Below, piece by piece: positions 3,590 to 13,026 of a DNA stretch of 64,000 nt (positions within the stretch are counted from its first letter, which is position 1; the number at the start of each line of letters is the position of its first letter). Location of the stretch: contig DASZTF010000044.1 of the NCBI GenBank assembly GCA_035548315.1, forward strand, positions 95,484 through 159,483, in the 5' to 3' direction. This stretch comes from Minisyncoccota bacterium. Lineage in GTDB: Bacteria > Patescibacteriota > Minisyncoccia > Phycocordibacterales > Phycocordibacteraceae. Under the pieces are notes generated by a model. The model was not told the origin of the DNA. It saw nothing but the letters and a program-made list of their open reading frames with translations, and searched no databases. The translations under genes and the position numbers were made by a program.

Positions 3590-4576
3590 ATGGCGAAGAC
3601 CTTACATGCTGCGAGGTCGCAGAAAAAGGACGAATTCTATACTCAACTTGCGGATATTGAGAATGAACTAAAGCACTACAAGGATCAGTTCCGAGGCAAG
3701 ACCGTATTTTGTAATTGTGATGATCCACGAGAAAGCAATTTCGTTAAATACTTCACAAACAACTTTGAGAAGCTAGGGCTTAAGAAATTAATAGCGACAC
3801 ACTACAAAGATGCGACTCTGTTTTCTCACGAACCGCCATATAAGTTGGAGTATGTTGGCGATAGAAATGGGAATCATTTGCCAGATCCGAGCGAACTCAT
3901 AACCAAGATGATAAGTGATGGTGATTTCCGTAGTGAAGAGTGCATCGACTTATTGCAGGAAGCAGACATTGTAGTTACCAATCCACCTTTCTCTCTTTTC
4001 AGAGAATACGTTGCTCAGCTTGGTAAGTACAATAAGAAATTTTTGATTATTGGCAACACAAACGCGATCACTTATAGGGAAATATTTGATCTAATCAAGG
4101 AAGACAAAATGCGCACAGGATATACGAATTTCAATATCGGCATGTTCTTTGTTGTACCCGATGACTGGGAACAGTTCCATCACATCGATAAGGATGGAAG
4201 AAAAATTGCACGAGTATCTACTTCATGTTGGTTCACTAACCTCGAAGTTGAACGACATAAAGAGAAAATAACACTCTATAAAAGGTATTCTCCGTCTGAG
4301 TACCCTAAGTATGATAATTATGATGCTATCGAAGTCTCGAAAGTATCAGAAATCCCGATGGACTATGAAGGTAATATGGGCGTGCCAATAACCTTTCTTG
4401 ACAAATTCAATCCAGAGCAGTTTAAGATCATTGGGAGTTTTAACGCAGGTGCTCACGGGGAAGAGCTTGGCGCTGTAAAAACCGAGACGCATACTAAAGG
4501 CAGAGTGATTATGTGGAATGGGCCCGTCGTAAATAAGCAGCCGTTATATAAGCGTATTATTGTTAAGCGGAAATAA
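3590..4576 (+). CDS. N6-adenine DNA methyltransferase, EcoRI-methylase family
   Basis: N-terminal KKDEFYTQ motif and catalytic TNPPF (motif IV) typical of M.EcoRI-like gamma-class methyltransferases. AT-rich codon usage unlike the flanks. Confidence 0.8.
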   Translation: MAKTLHAARSQKKDEFYTQLADIENELKHYKDQFRGKTVFCNCDDPRESNFVKYFTNNFEKLGLKKLIATHYKDATLFSHEPPYKLEYVGDRNGNHLPDPSELITKMISDGDFRSEECIDLLQEADIVVTNPPFSLFREYVAQLGKYNKKFLIIGNTNAITYREIFDLIKEDKMRTGYTNFNIGMFFVVPDDWEQFHHIDKDGRKIARVSTSCWFTNLEVERHKEKITLYKRYSPSEYPKYDNYDAIEVSKVSEIPMDYEGNMGVPITFLDKFNPEQFKIIGSFNAGAHGEELGAVKTETHTKGRVIMWNGPVVNKQPLYKRIIVKRK

Positions 4577-4577
4577 T

Positions 4578-5669
4578 ATGAAAATCGAACTACAGCGTAT
4601 TCCCATTCGCGAAGTGGTTGAAGGGTACAAAGATAGCGCTGAGGAGGGCGTCACTGCTTACGCAGGGAGGCTCGATATTCGGCCTAAATACCAACGTGAA
4701 TTTGTGTACAAGGGACATCAGCGTGACGCCGTCATCGAGACCGTCAAAAAAGGATTCCCCCTTAACGTTATGTACTGGGTGAAAACCGATGAGGGCGGGT
4801 ACGAAGTCTTGGATGGTCAACAGCGAACAATTAGCATTGGGCAGTACGTAAATGGCGACTTTTCGCTTAATGAAAGATACTTCCATAACCTAACTACGGA
4901 AGAGCAGGACCAGATTTTGAATTACGAATTGATGATTTATTTTTGTGAAGGCACTGATAAAGAGCGGCTTGACTGGTTCCGCATCATAAATATTGCTGGC
5001 GAGAAGCTCACCGAACAGGAACTGCGTAACGCCGTTTATACGGGGCCCTGGCTCTCAGATGCAAAGTTAAAATTTAGTAAGTCGAATTGCGCGGCTTATC
5101 TACTTGCGAATGATCATGGAAAGCTGGTTGAAGGCTCGCCAATTAGGCAGCAGTATCTGGAAACTGTGCTGTCCTGGATTAGCGATGAAAAGATTGAGGA
5201 TTATATGGCTCGACATCAGCACGACCCTAATGCCGATGATCTATGGGAATACTTTCAGGGTGTTATCGCATGGGCTCGTAGTACATTTCCGAATTATCGT
5301 CATGAAATGGCGAGTGTCGACTGGGGCAGCTTGTACAACGAATTCAAAGATGCAAAGTTAGATCCTAAGAAGCTAGAGATGGAGGTGAAGGAATTAATGC
5401 AGGACGAAGATGTCACCAAGAAGTCAGGTATATACCCATATCTTCTGACTAAGAAGGAGAAGCACCTGTCGATACGTGCATTTACCGATAAGATGAAGCG
5501 AGAAACTTATGAACGACAAGACGGTATTTGTCCGGTATGTAAGAAGCATTGGGATATTTTAGAAATGGAAGCAGATCACATAACGCCATGGCACGAAGGA
5601 GGTAAAACTACTGCCGACAACTGCCAAATGCTTTGCAAAGAGGATAATCGTAGGAAGTCAGGGAAGTAG
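4578..5669 (+). CDS. DUF262 (ParB/GmrSD-like NTP-binding, DGQQR motif) fused to a C-terminal HNH endonuclease
   Basis: LDGQQRTISIGQY (DGQQR signature) in the N-terminal half. C-terminal CPVCKKH...DHITPWHEGGKTTADNCQMLCKEDNRRK is a zinc-ribbon HNH motif. Start codon is 1 nt after the methyltransferase stop. Confidence 0.8.
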   Translation: MKIELQRIPIREVVEGYKDSAEEGVTAYAGRLDIRPKYQREFVYKGHQRDAVIETVKKGFPLNVMYWVKTDEGGYEVLDGQQRTISIGQYVNGDFSLNERYFHNLTTEEQDQILNYELMIYFCEGTDKERLDWFRIINIAGEKLTEQELRNAVYTGPWLSDAKLKFSKSNCAAYLLANDHGKLVEGSPIRQQYLETVLSWISDEKIEDYMARHQHDPNADDLWEYFQGVIAWARSTFPNYRHEMASVDWGSLYNEFKDAKLDPKKLEMEVKELMQDEDVTKKSGIYPYLLTKKEKHLSIRAFTDKMKRETYERQDGICPVCKKHWDILEMEADHITPWHEGGKTTADNCQMLCKEDNRRKSGK

Positions 5670-5673
5670 GTTT

Positions 5674-6024
5674 ATGGCGTCTAAGAAAACCATCTACGTC
5701 GCACATCCGATCTCGGGGGATTTGGAGGGGAACCAGAAGAAGGTGCTAGCCATTTGCGAAGAAATACATCGCCAGGGAGTTATTCCGGTTGCGCCGTACC
5801 TAGTCTCATTGCAGTACTTTAATGATGACATTCAAGAAGATAGGGAACTCGGGATAGAGGCGAGCCTTGAGCACTTCCGACGCGGATTTGTCGACGAGCT
5901 CTGGCTCTACGGGGACCGCATATCCAAGGGTATGTGGGGAGAAATACGCACGGCTCGTGAACACAACGTCCCTGTATTTGCTAAGACACCAGAAACCGAG
6001 CGAGATCTCGCAAACGAATCCTAG
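5674..6024 (+). CDS. nucleoside 2-deoxyribosyltransferase-like (DUF4406/DNPH1-like Rossmann) protein
   Basis: IYVAHPISGD N-terminal motif and a conserved Glu in GMWGEIRTARE, matching the catalytic Glu of the NDT superfamily. AT-rich like the island. Start codon is 4 nt after the previous stop. Confidence 0.5.
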   Translation: MASKKTIYVAHPISGDLEGNQKKVLAICEEIHRQGVIPVAPYLVSLQYFNDDIQEDRELGIEASLEHFRRGFVDELWLYGDRISKGMWGEIRTAREHNVPVFAKTPETERDLANES

Positions 6025-6484: not shown

Positions 6485-6854
6485 TATGGCGATCGCAGTG
6501 ATAGAGCTGCCGCGGATGCGGCGGGGGACGAGACAATATAAGACGGCCGTGAAGGTGGCGCGCGAGCTCGCGACGGCGCGGGTGCAGCACTTCAATGCGC
6601 ACTATGGTGCGCGGCACACGAGCATCACGATACGCAAGCAGCGTACGCGGTGGGGGAGCGCGAGCACGCGCGGCACGCTGTCATTCAATTACCGGATCGT
6701 GCACCTGCCGCCGGAACTCGTGGACTACATCATCGTGCACGAGCTGTGCCACTTGATCGAGATGAATCATTCGACCCGATTCTGGGCGCGGGTAGCAGAG
6801 ACCGTCCCCGATTGGAAGGAACACCGGAAGGCGCTGCGCCGCTACCGGTTCTAA
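6477..6854 (+). CDS. YgjP/DUF45-family zinc metallohydrolase (short form)
   Basis: HELCHLIEMNHSTRFW is the DUF45/WLM HExxH-type signature. Overlaps the EVE stop by 8 nt. GTG or ATG start at 6477/6486. Confidence 0.5.
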   Translation: MRDMAIAVIELPRMRRGTRQYKTAVKVARELATARVQHFNAHYGARHTSITIRKQRTRWGSASTRGTLSFNYRIVHLPPELVDYIIVHELCHLIEMNHSTRFWARVAETVPDWKEHRKALRRYRF

Positions 6855-6862
6855 GGCGGAGA

Positions 6863-7291
6863 CTATTTACGACCCTTGAGGCGTGCTGCGAAGTGGAAGC
6901 TCGCATACGCGAGATACGCGGCGAATGCGACGCCGACCCAGGAGAGCCAGAGCGGCACCGTGAGGTCCCCCACGATGAGCTCCCAGCCGAACACCAGTCG
7001 CATCGCGTGTATCACGGCGACGAAGAGGAAAATGAGTCCTGCGATGGTGACGAGCATGCGCTCAGATGGTGAGTGGATCGGGCTCTTCATGTGCCAGCCG
7101 TAGTACACCAGCATGAGGAGCAGCGCGACATTGAACACCAGCGCCGGGCCGACGCTGTCGGCGGTAAACGGCGTACCCGCAAGGATCACCGGAGTGAGTC
7201 CGACGGCGCTGAACCACAGCACGAACGCGAGCTTCGCCGCGACCATGCCCGAAAGGAACTTACATGCTTCCCGGAGTGTGTGATGGGTCAT
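6863..7291 (-). CDS. hypothetical membrane protein (4 TM)
   Basis: ORF with an internal start at MTHHTLRE. Hydrophobic helices. No family recognised. Confidence 0.4.
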   Translation of the reverse strand: MTHHTLREACKFLSGMVAAKLAFVLWFSAVGLTPVILAGTPFTADSVGPALVFNVALLLMLVYYGWHMKSPIHSPSERMLVTIAGLIFLFVAVIHAMRLVFGWELIVGDLTVPLWLSWVGVAFAAYLAYASFHFAARLKGRK

Positions 7292-7395
7292 GAAGATAGT
7301 ATGAAGCCGGTGGCAACTTTTACCACCACATGTCCACAGGTGCTCCACGGATAGCTTCCCTGCGGCGCAAGCTTCTCGGGAACTATCCGTTCCGC

Positions 7396-8142
7396 TTACA
7401 CAAGCATCGCCTTGATCACGAGCGCGGTTTCTTCGGGGTTCGCGACTTGCTGCGTTTTGATGCCGGTTTCTTTCACGACATCATCGTTCCCGCCCGGATA
7501 GAGCTGATCGCCGATGTAGAGCATATCAGCAATGGGAATGTTCAGATGCTCGGAAAGTCTGCGGATGCCGAATGCTTTATTCACGCCGTGCTTGGTCACA
7601 TCGATGGAGGTCGACCCGCCGCGCTTCACATCGTACTGCGGGAGGAGCGGGGCGATCGCGTTACGCAGCTGCTCGCGCTTGGTCTGGTCCGGATCCCATG
7701 CGAGCTTCTCCTCGACCGGGGCTTCCTGTCCGAAGACCGACAGTGTGACCTCTGAGCCGCGGAACTCGATGCGGTCGCCGTGCGACGGGGTAGAAAAGTC
7801 CACGAGCCCGGTCTTTTCCGCACCCTCCATAAGTGCGTCGCGGATAGTGAGGGCATCTTCCTCGGTCAGCGTTTCTATATACACGGGCGACCACTCGCCG
7901 AGTGCGTACTCGTAGAGCGCTGCTCCCGATGTGGGAAGAAGGTATAGATTCGTAAATGCAGCGTCGCTCGGCAGCTGGTCGACGAGCTGCTTTTTGAATT
8001 GCTCGAGTTTTCCGCCGCCCACGAGCGCGACTTTTGCTTTCCGCAGGAGCGCGGTGAGCGCGATCGCCATGTCGACTTCGAGCGGCGCTTTGCTCACGGT
8101 CAGGGTGTTGTCGATATCAAAGCAGATGAGCTTGGGAATCAT
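7396..8142 (-). CDS. eukaryotic-type phosphomannomutase (HAD-IIB, PF03332-like)
   Basis: CFDIDNTLT (DxDxT) motif. Along the full length it resembles human PMM2 (VALVGGG, RGSEVTLSVFGQE, GGSTSIDV, YIGDQLYPGGNDD). Overlaps the upstream GH130 gene stop by 4 nt. Confidence 0.7.
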   Translation of the reverse strand: MIPKLICFDIDNTLTVSKAPLEVDMAIALTALLRKAKVALVGGGKLEQFKKQLVDQLPSDAAFTNLYLLPTSGAALYEYALGEWSPVYIETLTEEDALTIRDALMEGAEKTGLVDFSTPSHGDRIEFRGSEVTLSVFGQEAPVEEKLAWDPDQTKREQLRNAIAPLLPQYDVKRGGSTSIDVTKHGVNKAFGIRRLSEHLNIPIADMLYIGDQLYPGGNDDVVKETGIKTQQVANPEETALVIKAMLV

Positions 8143-10073
8143 GGCGTCAGGTGGGGGAGTAGTTTGCGCACCAGCGTGGAAAGCGAGAGGGTTGCCACGC
8201 CGAGCGCCGTGTCGGCACCGCCGTAGTAGATCGCGAGGGTGTCGCCGGAGAGCGTCATGCCGTCCGAGAATACCACGTTCCCCACGACGCCGTCCTTTTC
8301 CCAGGTCTCCACCGGCTCGAGGATGGGGAGCGTGGTGCGTGCCAGCACGTTCGTGCAGGTCTCTGCATCGAGTAGTACTGCGCCGAGCCGGTAGACTTTA
8401 TCCGCGCCGATCGCGTGATAGATGAGGAGCCAGCCCTCGGGGATGCGCATCGGGGGAGCAGCGCAACCGACTTTCTCGTGATCCCACATCCCCGGCCGCG
8501 GGCCGATAAGCTCGATGCAACGATTCACTGGTCGCGCGAACGCGAGGTCGTCGAACACGTCCGCGCAGATATTGGGATCGATCCGATGGATCACCATGTA
8601 TTTCCCGCCGACTTTCCCGGAGACAAGACATACGTCTTTATCGGTGACGCCGTCTGGAGTAAGGAGGCGCGGGAGCGCCCAGCGGTCAAACCGCTTCGCG
8701 AGGAAGTCGCTCACCGGGATAGAACTCACTGCGCCGCGAGGGTCGCGGACGCCGTCGTAGGCGGTGTAGGTGAGGTACAGGGTGTCGCCTATAAGCGTGA
8801 GACGCGGATCCTCGCAGCCGGAATTGCCATTCGGATCGCCCTGCTTTTGCTCGAATGGCTCGCGCGGCACATACGCAGGATTGTGCAAGCGCTCGACGAC
8901 GCGGAAGTCTTTATCCACGCGTGCGTACCCCATGACCGAGGTGTTGTCGGCACCCATCGCGCGGTAGAGGAGGTGCGTCTCACCATTCAATTCCACCGCA
9001 GCGGCATTGAGTACCGCGCGTGATTCCCAGGCGTGGTCGGCGATCGGTTCGAGGATGGGATTTTTAGCGTACCGCTTTACGAAATTAAGCCGGTACTGTT
9101 CGTCCATGGCGTCGAAGAGATCGGGGAGGAAAAGAGACCCCATCCCACACACGGTATCGGCAGCGCCGTAGAAAATATCGAGCGTATCTTCGCGCAGCAC
9201 TGCACCCGAAGGGAATACGATATTGGGGACGGCGCCGTAGCGCTCGTAGGATTCTTTGGGCGACATGAACGACCCCGGTGTGCGCATCACGACCTTTTGC
9301 GGATCGTGCGCGTCGAGTACGAGCGCTTCCACGCCAAAGAGGCGGTTGTGCTCGTCGTAGTAATTGCGGATATGGGAGTACACCAGCAGCCAGCCCTTTT
9401 CCGTGCGCAGCGGCGCGGCGCCGACCTCCACATGCTCGCTATCCTGGCGGCGCAGTTCAGGGAGCGCGTGATCGGCGAGGCGCTCGTGCCAGCGCTGCCA
9501 GAACTCCGGATTCCAAAAGTCTTCAATGTTCTTCGCGCGCGCTATAGCGATCGTCGGGCGCGGGTACTCCGGCGTGTAATCCGTGTGGCAGGTGAGGAGC
9601 AGCACCACGTCGCCACCGATGCGTTCGGGGAACAGTGTCGCGGCTTTTGCATTGAACGGCGTCACCACGTGTTTCTCGGTAAGTGCGGTGGGTGACGCAC
9701 CGACCGCCGCACCGACTTTAATATTGCTCGGGCCGAACGGGAACCCGCCGAGCGCCGTGTAGAACACGTACCATTTTCCTTCGAAGAATGTGGCGCGCGG
9801 ATCCTCGCACCCATACGCTTCCCACGGGTGCTCGGGGACGATCACTTGCGTACGCTCACCCACGACGCCATCGGCGAGCGTGGCGTGGCCGATCGTGGAG
9901 AGTCCGGCGTACGGCGTGAGGAGTACGTCCGGCCGCGCGGTAGCACGGTAGAAGAGGTGTGTGGTATCGCCCTCGCGCACCGCAGAGGGGTTGAATGTCG
10001 CAAGCGCTTCCCATGCACGCTCGCGCACGGGCGCGATGATCGGATTTTGAGGAGAGCGGGTGAGGTAGAACAT
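8139..10073 (-). CDS. tandem two-module GH130 beta-mannoside phosphorylase (DUF377 x2)
   Basis: Two consecutive GH130-like modules, each with NPxxV, LFYRA and CEDPRxT motifs, in a single 644-aa polypeptide. Confidence 0.8.
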   Translation of the reverse strand: MFYLTRSPQNPIIAPVRERAWEALATFNPSAVREGDTTHLFYRATARPDVLLTPYAGLSTIGHATLADGVVGERTQVIVPEHPWEAYGCEDPRATFFEGKWYVFYTALGGFPFGPSNIKVGAAVGASPTALTEKHVVTPFNAKAATLFPERIGGDVVLLLTCHTDYTPEYPRPTIAIARAKNIEDFWNPEFWQRWHERLADHALPELRRQDSEHVEVGAAPLRTEKGWLLVYSHIRNYYDEHNRLFGVEALVLDAHDPQKVVMRTPGSFMSPKESYERYGAVPNIVFPSGAVLREDTLDIFYGAADTVCGMGSLFLPDLFDAMDEQYRLNFVKRYAKNPILEPIADHAWESRAVLNAAAVELNGETHLLYRAMGADNTSVMGYARVDKDFRVVERLHNPAYVPREPFEQKQGDPNGNSGCEDPRLTLIGDTLYLTYTAYDGVRDPRGAVSSIPVSDFLAKRFDRWALPRLLTPDGVTDKDVCLVSGKVGGKYMVIHRIDPNICADVFDDLAFARPVNRCIELIGPRPGMWDHEKVGCAAPPMRIPEGWLLIYHAIGADKVYRLGAVLLDAETCTNVLARTTLPILEPVETWEKDGVVGNVVFSDGMTLSGDTLAIYYGGADTALGVATLSLSTLVRKLLPHLTP

Positions 10074-10076
10074 GCG

Positions 10077-11279
10077 CTACGCGGGGCGGGGCAAGAGACT
10101 CATGACGCGAATCGGCAGCGCCGGCTTCTTGCGACCCATGAGTTCTGCAAGGAACACCTCGAGTGGGGCAGCAGCAGCACATACGCGCATGTCGCCGCCG
10201 CCGTAGTACACGATGAGCATGCCGTCCTTCACAACGGCACCGGTCGCATAGATCACGCCAGGCTTGCCGTCGTTCTCGTAGGGCATATCGGGCTCGAGGA
10301 TGGGGTAAGGCGAGCGCGCGATGACCTTGGTGATGTCGTCCTTATCAAGAAGAACCGCGCCGATTTTATATTTATGCGGCTCGCGGGCATCATTCGCATG
10401 GTAGAGCACGAGCCAGCCGTATACGGTTTCGATGGGTGGCGGGCCCGATCCGCGTACGCGGCTGTCCCACACGTTCTCGTCGAACTCGTCGCGGAAACGC
10501 GCATCGCTCTTCACGTAGTCGGCGGGTTCGGTGTCGAGCGAGTCGAGGTATTCGATCAAGACGCGGCGGCGCGTGCCCTTCCTAAATCCGTGGAGCACGG
10601 CGTACGTACCATTAATTTTCCGCGGGAAGAGCACCCAGTTCTTCTGGACTTCACCGGGCGCGGAGAGGAAGACTGGTTTGGTCCAATTCCAGTGGTTCAT
10701 TTCCATGTCGTCGAGCGCGATCGAGGTGACGCCGATCCGGAGCGAGTCCCAATCGCTGAATGCCGAGAAGGAGAGGTACAGGCGGTCGTCCACGACGACC
10801 GCGCGAGGATCTTCCGTACCCGCCCACGTGCCGCCCGACTGCATCAATTTCTCGTAGAGCGCAGGATGGTAGCGCTTGCGGAGTTCTGCGTGCTGCGGCG
10901 CGCCGACACCGGTGAGCGCGAACACGGGCATCGGCAGGCGCGTATCAAAATGGAACCCATCTTCGCTTGAGGCATAGCCCACGCGCGAGACGCCGTCCAT
11001 GCCGATCGCGCGATAGAAAAGGTGCACGCGTCCTCGTGCATAGACCGCAGCCGGATTCATGACGCCGCCGGCTTCCCAGAACTTCCCGGTGGGCTCGAGC
11101 ACGGGATTATCATCGGCGCGCGCGAGCGCGAGCGGCCGGTCTAGGATGAAATCGCGGAGGCCGCGCATCGCGCGGCGCGAATGCTTCGAGTTCACAATGT
11201 GGAATGCGCCTTGGAGGAAAAAGAGCGTCGCGGCGATCGCTCCGGTGAGAAAGAGAAAGAGGATGACAATGTTACTCAT
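10077..11279 (-). CDS. membrane-anchored GH130 family glycoside phosphorylase
   Basis: N-terminal TM helix followed by a GH130 module (NPAAV, LFYRAIG, EDPRAV, YGGGD). Confidence 0.8.
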   Translation of the reverse strand: MSNIVILFLFLTGAIAATLFFLQGAFHIVNSKHSRRAMRGLRDFILDRPLALARADDNPVLEPTGKFWEAGGVMNPAAVYARGRVHLFYRAIGMDGVSRVGYASSEDGFHFDTRLPMPVFALTGVGAPQHAELRKRYHPALYEKLMQSGGTWAGTEDPRAVVVDDRLYLSFSAFSDWDSLRIGVTSIALDDMEMNHWNWTKPVFLSAPGEVQKNWVLFPRKINGTYAVLHGFRKGTRRRVLIEYLDSLDTEPADYVKSDARFRDEFDENVWDSRVRGSGPPPIETVYGWLVLYHANDAREPHKYKIGAVLLDKDDITKVIARSPYPILEPDMPYENDGKPGVIYATGAVVKDGMLIVYYGGGDMRVCAAAAPLEVFLAELMGRKKPALPIRVMSLLPRPA

Positions 11280-11692
11280 GTCGGACTGGTGCGACCAAAA
11301 TCATCTTCAATACGCTCTTCGTCGTGCTCTTCGAAGGTCCCAAGTGCGATTTCCAGCCACACCAGGCCCTCGGCGTGTGCGGCGAGACGATGTGTGACTC
11401 CTCTTGGAATATGCACTTCGCTTCCCGCGCTCACGGACTCTGGCGTACCATCGACCTCTGCGGTGCCGCTGCCGGAAATGACGCGCCAAAATTCCGCGCG
11501 CTGCGCGTGGCGCTGAAGCGAAAGTCGTTCGTCGGGCTTGAGCGTGAGCAGTTTTACGGTGGACTGCTCGTTCAGCGTAAAGCGGTCGAAGGAACCCCAG
11601 GGGCGGTCTTCGTGGTCGCGGTGGGGGAGCAGGTTCATAGCTCTCTCCAGTATAGCGAGCCTTCTCCCTCTGCCCCAGTAGGTAATGCACAT
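11276..11692 (-). CDS. cupin-type mannose-6-phosphate isomerase (COG0662-like)
   Basis: The double-stranded beta-helix motif QRHAQRAEFWRVISGSG...VHIPRGVTHRL matches the cupin domain of ManC/PMI type II. First gene of the operon. Confidence 0.6.
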   Translation of the reverse strand: MCITYWGRGRRLAILERAMNLLPHRDHEDRPWGSFDRFTLNEQSTVKLLTLKPDERLSLQRHAQRAEFWRVISGSGTAEVDGTPESVSAGSEVHIPRGVTHRLAAHAEGLVWLEIALGTFEEHDEERIEDDFGRTSPT

Positions 11693-11731
11693 CTAGTAGG
11701 GGAAAAATGTAAAACCAGCTATACTGGCGCC

Positions 11732-11932
11732 ATGGCTCGTATCGAGAACAGGGTGCAGCAATTGCGCCACGGACTGGGCATGACCCAGGAAGAACTCGCG
11801 GAGAAGGCGAAGGTCACGCGCCAGACGATTATTGCGATTGAGAAGGGCAATTACGCTCCCTCCGTGGTGCTTGCGCTGCGGCTTGCGCATATACTAAAGA
11901 CATCCGTCGAACAGCTATTCACGCTTATATGA
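11732..11932 (+). CDS. XRE-family (Cro/C1) HTH transcriptional regulator
   Basis: LGMTQEELAEKAKVTRQTIIAIEKG is a canonical HTH_3 motif. Leaderless (TATACT at 11721-26, 5 nt before the ATG). Divergent from the mannoside operon. Confidence 0.75.
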   Translation: MARIENRVQQLRHGLGMTQEELAEKAKVTRQTIIAIEKGNYAPSVVLALRLAHILKTSVEQLFTLI

Positions 11933-12282
11933 TTTGGCATTATCTCATTGCTGCGGTACTTATTATCTCGCTCATCGCGGTCACCAATCCGTGGATGATC
12001 TTCATGCCCACGGTGATGGAGATGGTCGCGCTCGTGGTCATCGCCGTGCTCGTGGCGGGATACGCAGGACTCATTCTCGCGGAGCAGCCGAACGACGAGC
12101 GCGAAGACGCGCACCGCGCCTTTGCGGCGCGGGCGGGATTCATCACCGGCATCGCGCTCCTTACGGCCGCGCTCTTGTGGCAGGGCTTCCACCACGCGAT
12201 CGACGCGTGGGTGCCGAGCGCGCTCGGCGCGATGATACTCGCGAAAGTGGCCGCCCGTGCGTGGGCGAACCACTACCGCTAG
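11929..12282 (+). CDS. small membrane protein co-transcribed with the XRE regulator (YozG/DUF2178-like arrangement)
   Basis: ATGA start/stop overlap with the regulator. Three or four hydrophobic helices. Confidence 0.5.
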   Translation: MIWHYLIAAVLIISLIAVTNPWMIFMPTVMEMVALVVIAVLVAGYAGLILAEQPNDEREDAHRAFAARAGFITGIALLTAALLWQGFHHAIDAWVPSALGAMILAKVAARAWANHYR

Positions 12283-12300
12283 CAGAAAGAACAAGAGGCG

Positions 12301-13026
12301 CTAGTGCGCCTCTTCGTTCATCATCGCACCGCTGTCCTCGTGCATCATCGCGTTATCTTGCGATTGGTTCGCGTCTCCCTCCATCATGCCTTCGCCGTTC
12401 GACTCGGTATTTTCTTCCTGCATCGAGCCCTGCTCCATAGTCGTGGATGCCATCGTGTCGTCATGCATCATCGCGTCGTCGGTGCTGCTTGCGTCCTCGT
12501 GCATCATGGCGTCCGCTGCTGCCTGCGCCGAGTCGCTGAGATCATAACCCGCGTCATCGAGCTTTGCGGCGAGGTCGGCATCCGACGGTGTTTCATCGAG
12601 CACCGCGGTGTCTGAAAGTTCCGCGCTTGCTGCGGCATCGTCACCCGCGAGTACCTCGGTATCAGAATCGTCGTACGTTCCATTACCATCGTCTGCCACC
12701 ACCGCTGCGGTAATCGTCGCACCTGCGGTCAGTGTGCCGTTCGTATGGATGTGCACATTGCGATGCTCACCCGCGGTCAAGAGATCGCTCTGACCGGCCA
12801 CGGTCTTGGGCGTGCTCGTACTGCTCGTGTAGATCACCACGTATCCCGGCTTAGCGAGCTTGGCGTATGTGACGACCATGTCGTCGCTTGGCTTCTGGCT
12901 TTCCAGAAGGACGGCATTGTCGTTCGTGACAAGCGTCGTCGCGTACGCGCGGTCGAGGTACCAGTAGCCTCCGATCACGAGGATCACAAGCACGATACCG
13001 GTAACCCACCATTGATTCATATTCAT
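12301..13026 (-). CDS. membrane-anchored acidic protein with Met/His-rich AMMHED repeats (possible Cu(I)/metal-binding)
   Basis: N-terminal TM helix. The C-terminal tail carries DAMMHEDASSTDDAMMHDD...NAMMHEDSGAMMNEEAH, four copies of an (A)MMH(E/D)D motif. Confidence 0.5.
   Translation of the reverse strand: MNMNQWWVTGIVLVILVIGGYWYLDRAYATTLVTNDNAVLLESQKPSDDMVVTYAKLAKPGYVVIYTSSTSTPKTVAGQSDLLTAGEHRNVHIHTNGTLTAGATITAAVVADDGNGTYDDSDTEVLAGDDAAASAELSDTAVLDETPSDADLAAKLDDAGYDLSDSAQAAADAMMHEDASSTDDAMMHDDTMASTTMEQGSMQEENTESNGEGMMEGDANQSQDNAMMHEDSGAMMNEEAH

Follow-up and report, generated by a model that had tools for sequence, protein, structure and literature searches.

A lineage-typical Paceibacteria operon of three GH130 modules, a cupin and a phosphohexomutase that may couple beta-1,2-mannosides to central metabolism

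Introduction

In the mannan catabolism of Bacteroides and Ruminococcus, phosphorylases of glycoside hydrolase family 130 (GH130) release alpha-mannose-1-phosphate (Man-1-P), which a mutase and an isomerase then convert to fructose-6-phosphate (Fru-6-P). Studies by Senoura in 2011 and Kawahara in 2012 reportedly described a GH130 mannosylglucose or mannooligosaccharide phosphorylase acting first, followed by a phosphomannomutase (PMM) and a mannose-6-phosphate isomerase (PMI). In Paceibacteria and their relatives within the candidate phyla radiation (CPR), genomes are tiny and encode very few carbohydrate-active enzymes, and little has been learned about which carbon sources and hosts these cells depend on. 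Here we describe a GH130 operon in 64,000 nucleotides of DNA from a Minisyncoccota bacterium (contig DASZTF010000044.1, positions 95,484 to 159,483), a stretch which we refer to as the window and whose own positions are used throughout. A cupin gene, a gene for a membrane-anchored GH130 protein of 400 aa, a gene for a 644-aa double GH130 protein and the gene of a mutase of the HAD-IIB class follow one another on its minus strand. We consider that there is about an even chance that this is a lineage-typical operon of Paceibacteria coupling cytoplasmic beta-1,2-mannosides to central metabolism via Man-1-P.

The characterised GH130 enzymes supply the residue rules by which such modules can be read. 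Phosphorylases have a proton-donor Asp and bind phosphate through Arg168 and His231 (UhgbMP numbering; PMC7660257), with a third phosphate ligand at Arg242 by the numbering of Uhgb_MS (PMC12814180), and the Arg/His phosphate pair is the literature criterion for calling a GH130 protein a phosphorylase (PMC7660257; Li et al. 2020). A Glu beside the proton donor and a Lys at the position of UhgbMP R150 together mark beta-1,2 specificity (PMC7660257, PMC4599007), and the bases of the hydrolase BT3780 are Glu227 and Glu268 (PMC4599007). Fusions of two GH130 modules were scarce in CAZy in 2018, with four GH130-GH130 proteins among 1592 sequences (PMC7660257).

Results

Two GH130 propellers in one polypeptide

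The Pfam GH130 model, PF04041, matched the 644-aa protein in two stretches (256.5 bits) and the 400-aa protein in one (123.5 bits; cut-off 26 for both). The N-terminal half of the 644-aa protein alone aligned to residues 12-304 of 7fip (E = 1.5e-39), and the AlphaFold2 (AF2) model of the whole protein had two beta-propellers (pLDDT 94.5, pTM 0.91), the latter score suggesting that they are held in a fixed mutual packing. Foldseek, run on this model only, gave target-normalised TM-scores of 0.86-0.90 to 9gph, 9fj8 and 7fip, in keeping with a beta-propeller fold of five blades, and the top match of the whole model was Teth514_1788 (9gph), at 0.90. The preliminary description of this stretch had proposed two GH130 modules in the 644-aa protein, and it was these that were found, rather than a single GH130 joined to an unrelated domain.

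The 644-aa protein was identical to one annotated as hypothetical in a Candidatus Paceibacterota metagenome-assembled genome, and its homologs were numerous (3670 proteins with E <= 1e-10). Among the best 120 of these, 117 had a length of 620-660 aa, and those that carried a name were all from Patescibacteria or unclassified bacterial metagenome-assembled genomes.

Three active-site types that share a predicted beta-1,2 signature

We typed the modules by reading the schemes for UhgbMP, Uhgb_MS and BT3780 through alignments to PDB entries and a hidden Markov model (HMM) alignment of all modules, and refer to the N-terminal and C-terminal modules of the 644-aa protein as the N-type and P-type, and to the anchored protein as the T-type. 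The proton-donor Asp (UhgbMP D104) was present in all three, within the motifs CEDPR, CEDPR and TEDPR, and was invariant in the homologs of each type. The Glu/Lys pair was likewise invariant, being E90/K143 in the N-type, E421/K479 in the P-type and again Glu and Lys in the T-type. Because the Asp donor and the Glu/Lys pair are kept in all three modules, beta-1,2-mannosides are the predicted substrates of each. With mutual identities of 25-32%, against 30-38% to the Thermoanaerobacter enzymes, the three types read as old paralogs.

The types differed at the phosphate site. The phosphate Arg (UhgbMP R168, Uhgb_MS R202) was kept only by the P-type, as an invariant R497, and was replaced by Thr in the N-type and by Gly in the T-type of this operon. 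The phosphate His (UhgbMP H231) was H553 in the P-type, was kept in 120 of the 123 modules found among the listed T-type homologs, and was Ser233 in the N-type. In the P-type, E421, D422, K479, H496-R497, K534 and Y552-H553 were all invariant across 117 homologs; its identity to Teth514_1789 and Teth514_1788 was 36-38%, and its best NCBIfam model was that for beta-1,2-mannobiose phosphorylase, at a score below the cut-off of that model. Judged by these residues, the C-terminal propeller has the canonical signature, and none of the residues that define beta-1,2-mannoside phosphorylases is missing.

In the N-type module E90, D91, K143 and D306 were invariant across 117 homologs, as were Asn28 and Arg43. 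The equivalent of Arg168 lay in the invariant stretch T161-x-H163-T164-D165, where it was Thr; the equivalent of Arg/Lys242 was His214, flanked by D/E213 and E216; and the equivalent of His231 was Ser233, such that Y232-S233 stood where phosphorylases have Tyr-His. The replacement residues (T161, H163, T164, D165, H214 and E216) were themselves invariant or nearly so in the same 117 homologs. E216 shared an HMM column with Glu268 of BT3780, and the Tyr-Ser pair stood where BT3780 has Tyr-Asn. All three basic phosphate ligands being replaced, the N-type module appears hydrolase-like. The BT3780 class is secreted, which the N-type would not be, as it starts at Met1 of a soluble fusion with no hydrophobic segment. 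The earlier proposal of three GH130 phosphorylase modules therefore has to be revised, since only the C-terminal module keeps the Arg/His phosphate pair, the N-type being hydrolase-like and the T-type lacking the Arg.

The membrane-anchored GH130

Residue counts for the T-type cover 120 listed homologs, which together contain 123 GH130 modules. In alignments to 9fj8 and 7fip the T-type of the window had His-Gly where phosphorylases show His-Arg, and across the family the Arg168 equivalent was Ser in 80 modules, Gly in 29, Asn in 7, Ala in 4 and Arg in 1, with 2 gapped; the single Arg belonged to the phosphorylase half of a fusion of T-type and P-type modules (P0282). An invariant Arg was found one column past the Arg242 equivalent in 119/123 modules. 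The column of Glu268 held Gly, leaving no Glu as a hydrolytic base, and a 25-aa insertion (SGG[SG]WGG) lay just ahead of the Glu-Asp motif. On these residues the T-type falls outside both the phosphorylase rule and the hydrolase rule.

The 400-aa protein does have the membrane anchor that had been noted, located in its strongly hydrophobic first 29 residues (Kyte-Doolittle mean 2.71 over 19 residues), and a hydrophobic N-terminal segment was present in 116/116 full-length T-type homologs. The 644-aa protein had no such N-terminus. The mean net charge in the T-type was -0.55 ahead of the helix, against +2.7 over the 20 residues that follow. From hydropathy and flanking charge, and by the positive-inside rule, the T-type is predicted to be N-out/C-in, with an uncleaved-looking anchor and the propeller tethered at the cytoplasmic face of the membrane. 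This topology would fit the proposed pathway because inorganic phosphate (Pi) and sugar phosphates are found in the cytoplasm.

Some variation was seen around this protein. The T-type orthologs of L007, L009 and L010 (Nomurabacteria-type loci) had an apparent Lys/Arg-rich N-terminal extension in their first 45 residues in place of the transmembrane (TM) helix. In two more distantly related loci, L021 (4574-6004) and L023 (1212-3071), the third GH130 upstream of the double gene had a phosphorylase signature and was not of the T-type; it carried an N-terminal extension of 130-290 aa with no domain match. The T-type of the window itself had a 4-residue Arg-rich insertion (HGFRKGTRRR, within positions 10500-10560, at about residues 240-260) at the His-Arg site of phosphorylases, where the other aligned orthologs lacked it and read HS[IV]SP. 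We considered whether FRKGTRRR could substitute for the missing Arg across the family and rejected this, as it was confined to close relatives of this genome and absent from other orthologs.

The mutase and the isomerase

PF03332, the PMM model, matched the HAD protein at 43.8 bits (cut-off 22.4) over positions 5-219 of its 221, and TIGR01484 (HAD-IIB) did so at 60 bits. The DxDxT motif was DIDNT (residues 8-12, in the stretch FDIDNTL), and its Asp residues and Thr were invariant in 7 HAD orthologs and the alpha-phosphoglucomutase (APGM) of Lactococcus lactis. The structure of the latter, 4bnd, was the closest solved relative in a search of the PDB (E = 4e-48, 39% identity over the full length), with PMM2 structures following at E of about 1e-12, aligned over residues 3-242. 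The assignment to PF03332 suggested in the preliminary description thus survives, and by these matches the protein belongs to the PMM/alpha-phosphoglucomutase (PGM) family. The L. lactis enzyme, according to Neves in 2006, is reportedly glucose-specific and inactive on mannose phosphates. Conversion of Man-1-P to mannose-6-phosphate (Man-6-P), and possibly also of glucose-1-phosphate to glucose-6-phosphate, is the role that we infer here, and enzymes that act as both PMM and PGM are common among HAD-type PMMs (PMC8808168).

The cupin matched PF01050 (MannoseP_isomer) at 69.5 bits (cut-off 23.6) over positions 13-116 of 116, in agreement with the PMI family membership first proposed for it. Full-length NCBIfam models joining mannose-1-phosphate guanylyltransferase (GMPP) and PMI matched only through their C-terminal 110 residues and far below cut-off, and no close solved structure was found. 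The pattern SLQ-H-x2-R-x-E-x-W and the His of motif 2 were invariant across 8 orthologs, and the metal ligands are presumably Gln, His, Glu and His. A degenerate metal site (HHH to HAQ) was considered and dropped given the invariance of SLQ-H...E and the motif-2 His in these orthologs. The true start is probably Met19 (ATG at nt 11638), which would give a protein of 120 aa, since orthologs begin there and GGAGAG lies just upstream of this ATG. By sequence the small cupin is a type-II PMI domain, for which stand-alone PMI activity is predicted.

Gene order and fusions in related loci

A scan of species-representative genomes returned 15 loci, and synteny was counted on the 10 Patescibacteria loci that reached beyond the double GH130 gene. 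The anchored GH130 was directly upstream of the double gene in all ten, the HAD gene was adjacent in 9/10 and the cupin in 7/10, in two gene orders (cupin-T-NP-HAD and HAD-cupin-T-NP). Both a double and a TM-anchored GH130 had been called unusual. This holds against characterised GH130s, among which the fusion is rare in catalogued enzymes, but not within Patescibacteria, where both architectures are standard.

Fusions joined the same components in other combinations. One protein of 971 aa (P0121) had T, N-like and P modules in a single chain, in the order of the genes here, with three Pfam GH130 stretches, and T-P fusions were found in P0168 and P0282; in L017 the HAD gene lay beside a T-P fusion. 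Stand-alone N-type proteins also occurred (P0134-P0136), in L019 beside a double GH130, and in L020 the order was N-P and then T. In L023 one ORF of 375 aa joined the HAD mutase in frame to the PMI cupin. By Rosetta-stone reasoning the T-N-P, T-P and HAD-cupin fusions support functional coupling. The last is the best available evidence for the two proteins acting on consecutive steps, and suggests that the HAD protein handles mannose phosphates. The conserved synteny and this fusion make plausible the chain from Man-1-P through Man-6-P to Fru-6-P that had been put forward for the operon.

The mutase had a second partner in some loci. In L003 (2637-5273), L004 (9922-12519) and L005 (9926-12460) it was fused to an FAD-linked oxidase in one ORF of 844-878 aa, and in L001 (9923-12429) the oxidase gene began at the last base of the HAD ORF. 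The oxidase portion of the fusions matched PF01565 and PF02913 and was of the D-lactate-dehydrogenase/GlcD type. When conserved neighbours, including transporter, GMPP and glycosyltransferase (GT) genes, were sought in the 10 loci, only this oxidase recurred, in a subset; it was absent from the window. In L016 (1-7916) the 971-aa triple GH130 ended a same-strand gene run that comprised a UDP-Glc/GDP-Man dehydrogenase, a weak match to CBP_BcsS, an NAD epimerase/dehydratase, a 652-aa processive-type GT2 and a GMPP.

Operon organization, regulator and flanking genes

The features of the operon and its immediate surroundings are listed in Table 1. The preliminary description had counted five minus-strand genes; the ORF list gives four. 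The short junctions it had reported are borne out, however, the two outer ones being 4-nt overlaps and the middle one a 3-nt gap, and translational coupling across the four genes is likely. A further minus-strand ORF (6863-7348) lay 47 nt from the HAD gene and had no Pfam match and no counterpart in related loci. A scan of positions 6700-12500 for promoters and terminators found nothing exceeding the shuffled expectation.

Table 1. Position and strand in the window of the operon genes, their modules and the adjacent divergent features.
Feature	Position	Strand	Size and basis
Cupin, type-II mannose-6-phosphate isomerase domain (predicted)	11276..11692	minus	ORF 138 aa; PF01050
T-type GH130, N-terminal membrane anchor and beta-propeller	10077..11279	minus	400 aa; PF04041
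Signal-anchor, TM helix residues 1-29 of T-type GH130	11193..11279	minus	Kyte-Doolittle
Double GH130 ORF	8139-10073	minus	644 aa; PF04041 in two stretches
N-type GH130 module, residues 1-328 of 644-aa protein	9090..10073	minus	residue typing
P-type GH130 module, residues 332-644 of 644-aa protein	8142..9080	minus	residue typing
HAD-IIB phosphohexomutase, PMM/alpha-PGM family	7396..8142	minus	248 aa; PF03332
Divergent XRE-family HTH regulator	11732..11932	plus	66 aa; HTH_3
Small membrane protein, 2-3 hydrophobic segments	11929..12282	plus	117 aa; no Pfam match
Perfect 10-bp inverted repeat CCAGTATAGC / GCTATACTGG	11647..11727		candidate operator

The divergent XRE regulator that had been noted ahead of the operon was recovered with HTH_3 (E = 3e-13). 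Of the related loci, only L001 and L004 had a homolog in this divergent position. The gene of the 117-aa membrane protein is coupled translationally to that of the regulator, which it overlaps by 4 nt, and this pair recurred beside the GH130 operon in the same two loci only (membrane protein at 5759-6229 in L001 and 5076-5438 in L004); the membrane protein could be a sensor partner of the regulator. Within the 93-bp spacer between the regulator and cupin genes, the arms of an inverted repeat occupied 11647-11656 and 11718-11727. With up to one mismatch allowed, CCAGTATAGC occurred 10 times in the window, where 2.1 occurrences were expected, several of them near gene starts; the repeat was not found in the equivalent spacer of L001. 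The repeat is a candidate for an XRE operator or for a pair of divergent -10-like elements.

Two other features flank the operon. A low-GC island (3590-6024; 44.6% compared to about 59%) encoded a DNA methyltransferase-like protein and a 369-aa protein bearing DGQQR and, towards its C-terminus, an HNH-like CxxC...H motif, and, judged by translations only, looks like an acquired restriction-modification or defence cassette. On the minus strand at 12301-13026 a DUF7282 protein combined a TM segment at its N-terminus with an acidic C-terminal half in which the motifs AMMHED, AMMHDD and AMMNEE were repeated, possibly for metal binding.

Discussion

A predicted route from beta-1,2-mannosides to fructose-6-phosphate

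In the pathway that we favor, the P-type module would convert a beta-1,2-mannoside and Pi to alpha-Man-1-P, the HAD mutase would convert this to Man-6-P, and the cupin would convert Man-6-P to Fru-6-P, each step of the chain being reversible. The N-type module would serve as an inverting beta-mannosidase in the cytoplasm and remove what the phosphorylase leaves, for example the last disaccharide or mannose on a non-mannose aglycone. The T-type, possibly a transferase, would act at the inner face of the membrane, its substrate being either a mannoside that is entering the cell or one bound to the membrane. Our best guess is that net flux would be catabolic, from mannoside to Fru-6-P and on to fermentation, and the linkage of the HAD gene to an FAD-linked oxidase in L001 and L003-L005 is a weak hint at such fermentative carbon flow. 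The pathways of Bacteroides, Ruminococcus and Thermoanaerobacter are precedents for the catabolic direction. The salvage route had been described as ATP-independent, which could be at best partially correct because the hydrolase step would release free mannose.

Several points weigh against this pathway. No importer, binding protein or secreted glycanase linked to the cluster was present in any locus examined, and beta-1,2-mannan is a rare environmental substrate. By contrast, the beta-1,2-mannoside cluster of Thermoanaerobacter carries an ABC importer and a GH5 (PMC4264767). The closest solved relative of the mutase, from L. lactis, was deposited as an alpha-phosphoglucomutase. No N-type residue aligns cleanly with Glu227 of BT3780, the invariant D165 and D/E213 being candidates. 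A GMPP and a processive-type GT2 directly precede the triple GH130 of L016, and the GH130 set of L024 has a GT2 as its divergent neighbour, both of which are contexts of biosynthesis or turnover rather than of catabolism. The linkage and mechanism calls are, moreover, predicted from the residue signatures of a few characterised enzymes.

Alternative explanations

The contexts of L016 and L024 raise the question of whether the operon serves the turnover of a beta-1,2-mannan that the cell makes itself, intracellular or membrane-associated and analogous to the mannogen of Leishmania. The T-type would then be a mannosyltransferase with GDP-mannose (GDP-Man) or Man-1-P as donor, the P-type a phosphorylase and the N-type a trimming hydrolase, with PMI and PMM linking the pool to Fru-6-P in both directions. 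We give this a low but appreciable probability. It would account for uptake genes having been seen in no locus and for three differentiated paralogs that always travel together and can be fused, as in L016 immediately downstream of the GMPP and GT2. All characterised beta-1,2 phosphorylases of GH130 are also weak GDP-Man transferases (PMC12814180), and the strict transferases of Leishmania GT108 have lost the Arg of the phosphate pocket (PMC10913872), in parallel to the T-type. However, the Arg is an imperfect indicator in GT108, since Franceus et al. found that its presence does not predict phosphorylase activity, although a change of Arg to His abolished the activity that they had installed (PMC10913872). 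Moreover, the modules here are GH130 and not GT108, with Foldseek matches to the GT108 mannosyltransferase/phosphorylases (MTPs) at E of about 1e-9 and 14-16% identity; a motif scan found no GMPP gene in the 64-kb window; synthesis by reverse phosphorolysis would be unfavourable at cellular Pi; and we found no report of beta-mannan from CPR cells, GH130 in CPR having been mentioned only in passing. The fully developed form of this idea is a bacterial mannogen cycle, in which the T-type is a membrane-tethered beta-1,2-mannosyltransferase, the N-type a hydrolase and the P-type a phosphorylase, and the mannan pool buffers carbon and is tied to glycolysis by PMM and PMI; we regard this as rather unlikely. 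The operon might instead supply and recycle Man-1-P for glycoconjugates, PMI and PMM making it from Fru-6-P for GDP-mannose and the GH130 set recycling mannose without ATP. The genes of Teth514_1788 and Teth514_1789 lie next to those of a GMPP and of a mannosyltransferase, and a role in supplying GDP-mannose has been proposed for them (PMC4264767); L016 has the same GMPP adjacency, together with genes for a nucleotide-sugar dehydrogenase and an epimerase. The partners in the window and in its 10 closest relatives, however, are PMI and PMM rather than GMPP or a GT, and we consider this explanation unlikely, while noting that an operon of PMI and PMM would fit either direction equally well.

Two further alternatives concern single proteins. 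The N-type module could be a non-catalytic pseudo-enzyme, serving as a dimer partner or a carbohydrate-binding lid for the phosphorylase, in which case the operon would have one or two working GH130 catalysts. GH130 phosphorylases do act as dimers or higher oligomers, and in Uhgb_MS the loop L2 of the partner shapes the donor site (PMC12814180); the modelled packing of the two propellers is fixed, and the phosphate site of the N-type is gone. Yet Asp91, Glu90, Lys143, Asn28, Arg43 and Asp306 are invariant and the replacement residues nearly or fully so, a pattern that points to a selected rather than a decayed active site, and N-type proteins also exist on their own, which makes a pseudo-enzyme improbable. 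It is scarcely credible, in turn, that the HAD protein is a housekeeping alpha-PGM that neighbours the GH130 genes by chance, such that the operon would not be a mannose-phosphate pathway. This would agree with its best solved homolog being the L. lactis alpha-PGM, far above PMM2, but its gene keeps its adjacency in nine of the ten loci through two different gene orders, lies next to the T-P fusion of L017 and, in L023, forms a single reading frame with the PMI cupin, and enzymes of this type commonly serve both sugars.

Significance

A literature search found no description of this cluster, and one mention, in passing, of GH130 in CPR bacteria. The pathway logic is already known, and the C-terminal module is a further member of the beta-1,2 phosphorylase group. 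What we did not find described in the literature searched is the conserved set of three types, the fusion of a hydrolase-like module to a phosphorylase, the membrane-tethered type that lacks the Arg, and the pairing of these modules with both a HAD-type PMM and a stand-alone cupin PMI in CPR. The four-gene module, with its three differentiated GH130 paralogs, has been kept across a lineage that has few carbohydrate-active enzymes, and is therefore probably central to how these cells handle sugar. GH130 enzymology would gain two uncharacterised active-site types, a cytoplasmic hydrolase-like module wired to a phosphorylase and a membrane-tethered type, both of which break the heuristic that phosphorylases are cytoplasmic and hydrolases secreted. 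Were the mannogen-like cycle true, it would be the first storage glycan proposed for CPR and would include the first dedicated transferase in GH130.

Comparison with known systems

The closest solved structures to all three modules are Teth514_1788 and Teth514_1789 of Thermoanaerobacter (30-38% identity; target-normalised TM-score 0.90). The two systems share the Glu/Lys beta-1,2 signature and the presence of several GH130 paralogs side by side, linked to Man-1-P metabolism. Both Teth enzymes are, however, canonical soluble phosphorylases encoded beside an ABC importer, a GH5, a GMPP and a GT4, whereas in the present operon a single module out of three is canonical, two are fused and one is membrane-tethered, and the partners are a PMI and a HAD-type PMM, with no importer. 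The mannan catabolism of Bacteroides and Ruminococcus resembles the proposed pathway in its succession of phosphorylase, mutase and isomerase. Its enzymes differ in being beta-1,4-specific, with a Tyr/Arg signature, in using an alpha-D-phosphohexomutase-type PMM and a type-I PMI, and in being fed by secreted mannanases and importers.

The N-type resembles BT3780 and BACOVA_03624 (GH130_3) in having lost the three basic ligands, in the Glu of the Glu268 column, in the non-His residue after the conserved Tyr and in the beta-1,2 Lys. The Bacteroides enzymes, unlike the N-type, are secreted, stand-alone and encoded in polysaccharide utilisation loci; the N-type has no signal peptide, is fused to a phosphorylase and is only 26% identical to BT3780. 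The T-type can be compared with two systems. In the Leishmania GT108 MTP array, paralogous five-bladed propellers also share labour on beta-1,2-mannan, and the members that are transferases only are marked by having lost the Arg of the phosphate pocket; GT108 is nevertheless a different and, as given above, distant family, its MTPs are neither fused nor membrane-anchored, and a transferase role here is predicted only. Uhgb_MS is likewise beta-1,2-specific and shows that GH130 chemistry can include GDP-Man-dependent transfer, but it keeps Arg202 and the His of the phosphate pair and has the lid loop of GH130_4, whereas the T-type is without the Arg and has a different insertion, of 25 aa.

The HAD protein, finally, is like L. 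lactis PgmH (APGM, 4bnd) along its full length, at 39% identity, in the DxDxT nucleophile motif and in the HAD-IIB cap. The gene for PgmH is a stand-alone housekeeping gene, whereas that of the CPR protein lies within a GH130/PMI operon and, in one relative, is fused to the gene for the PMI.

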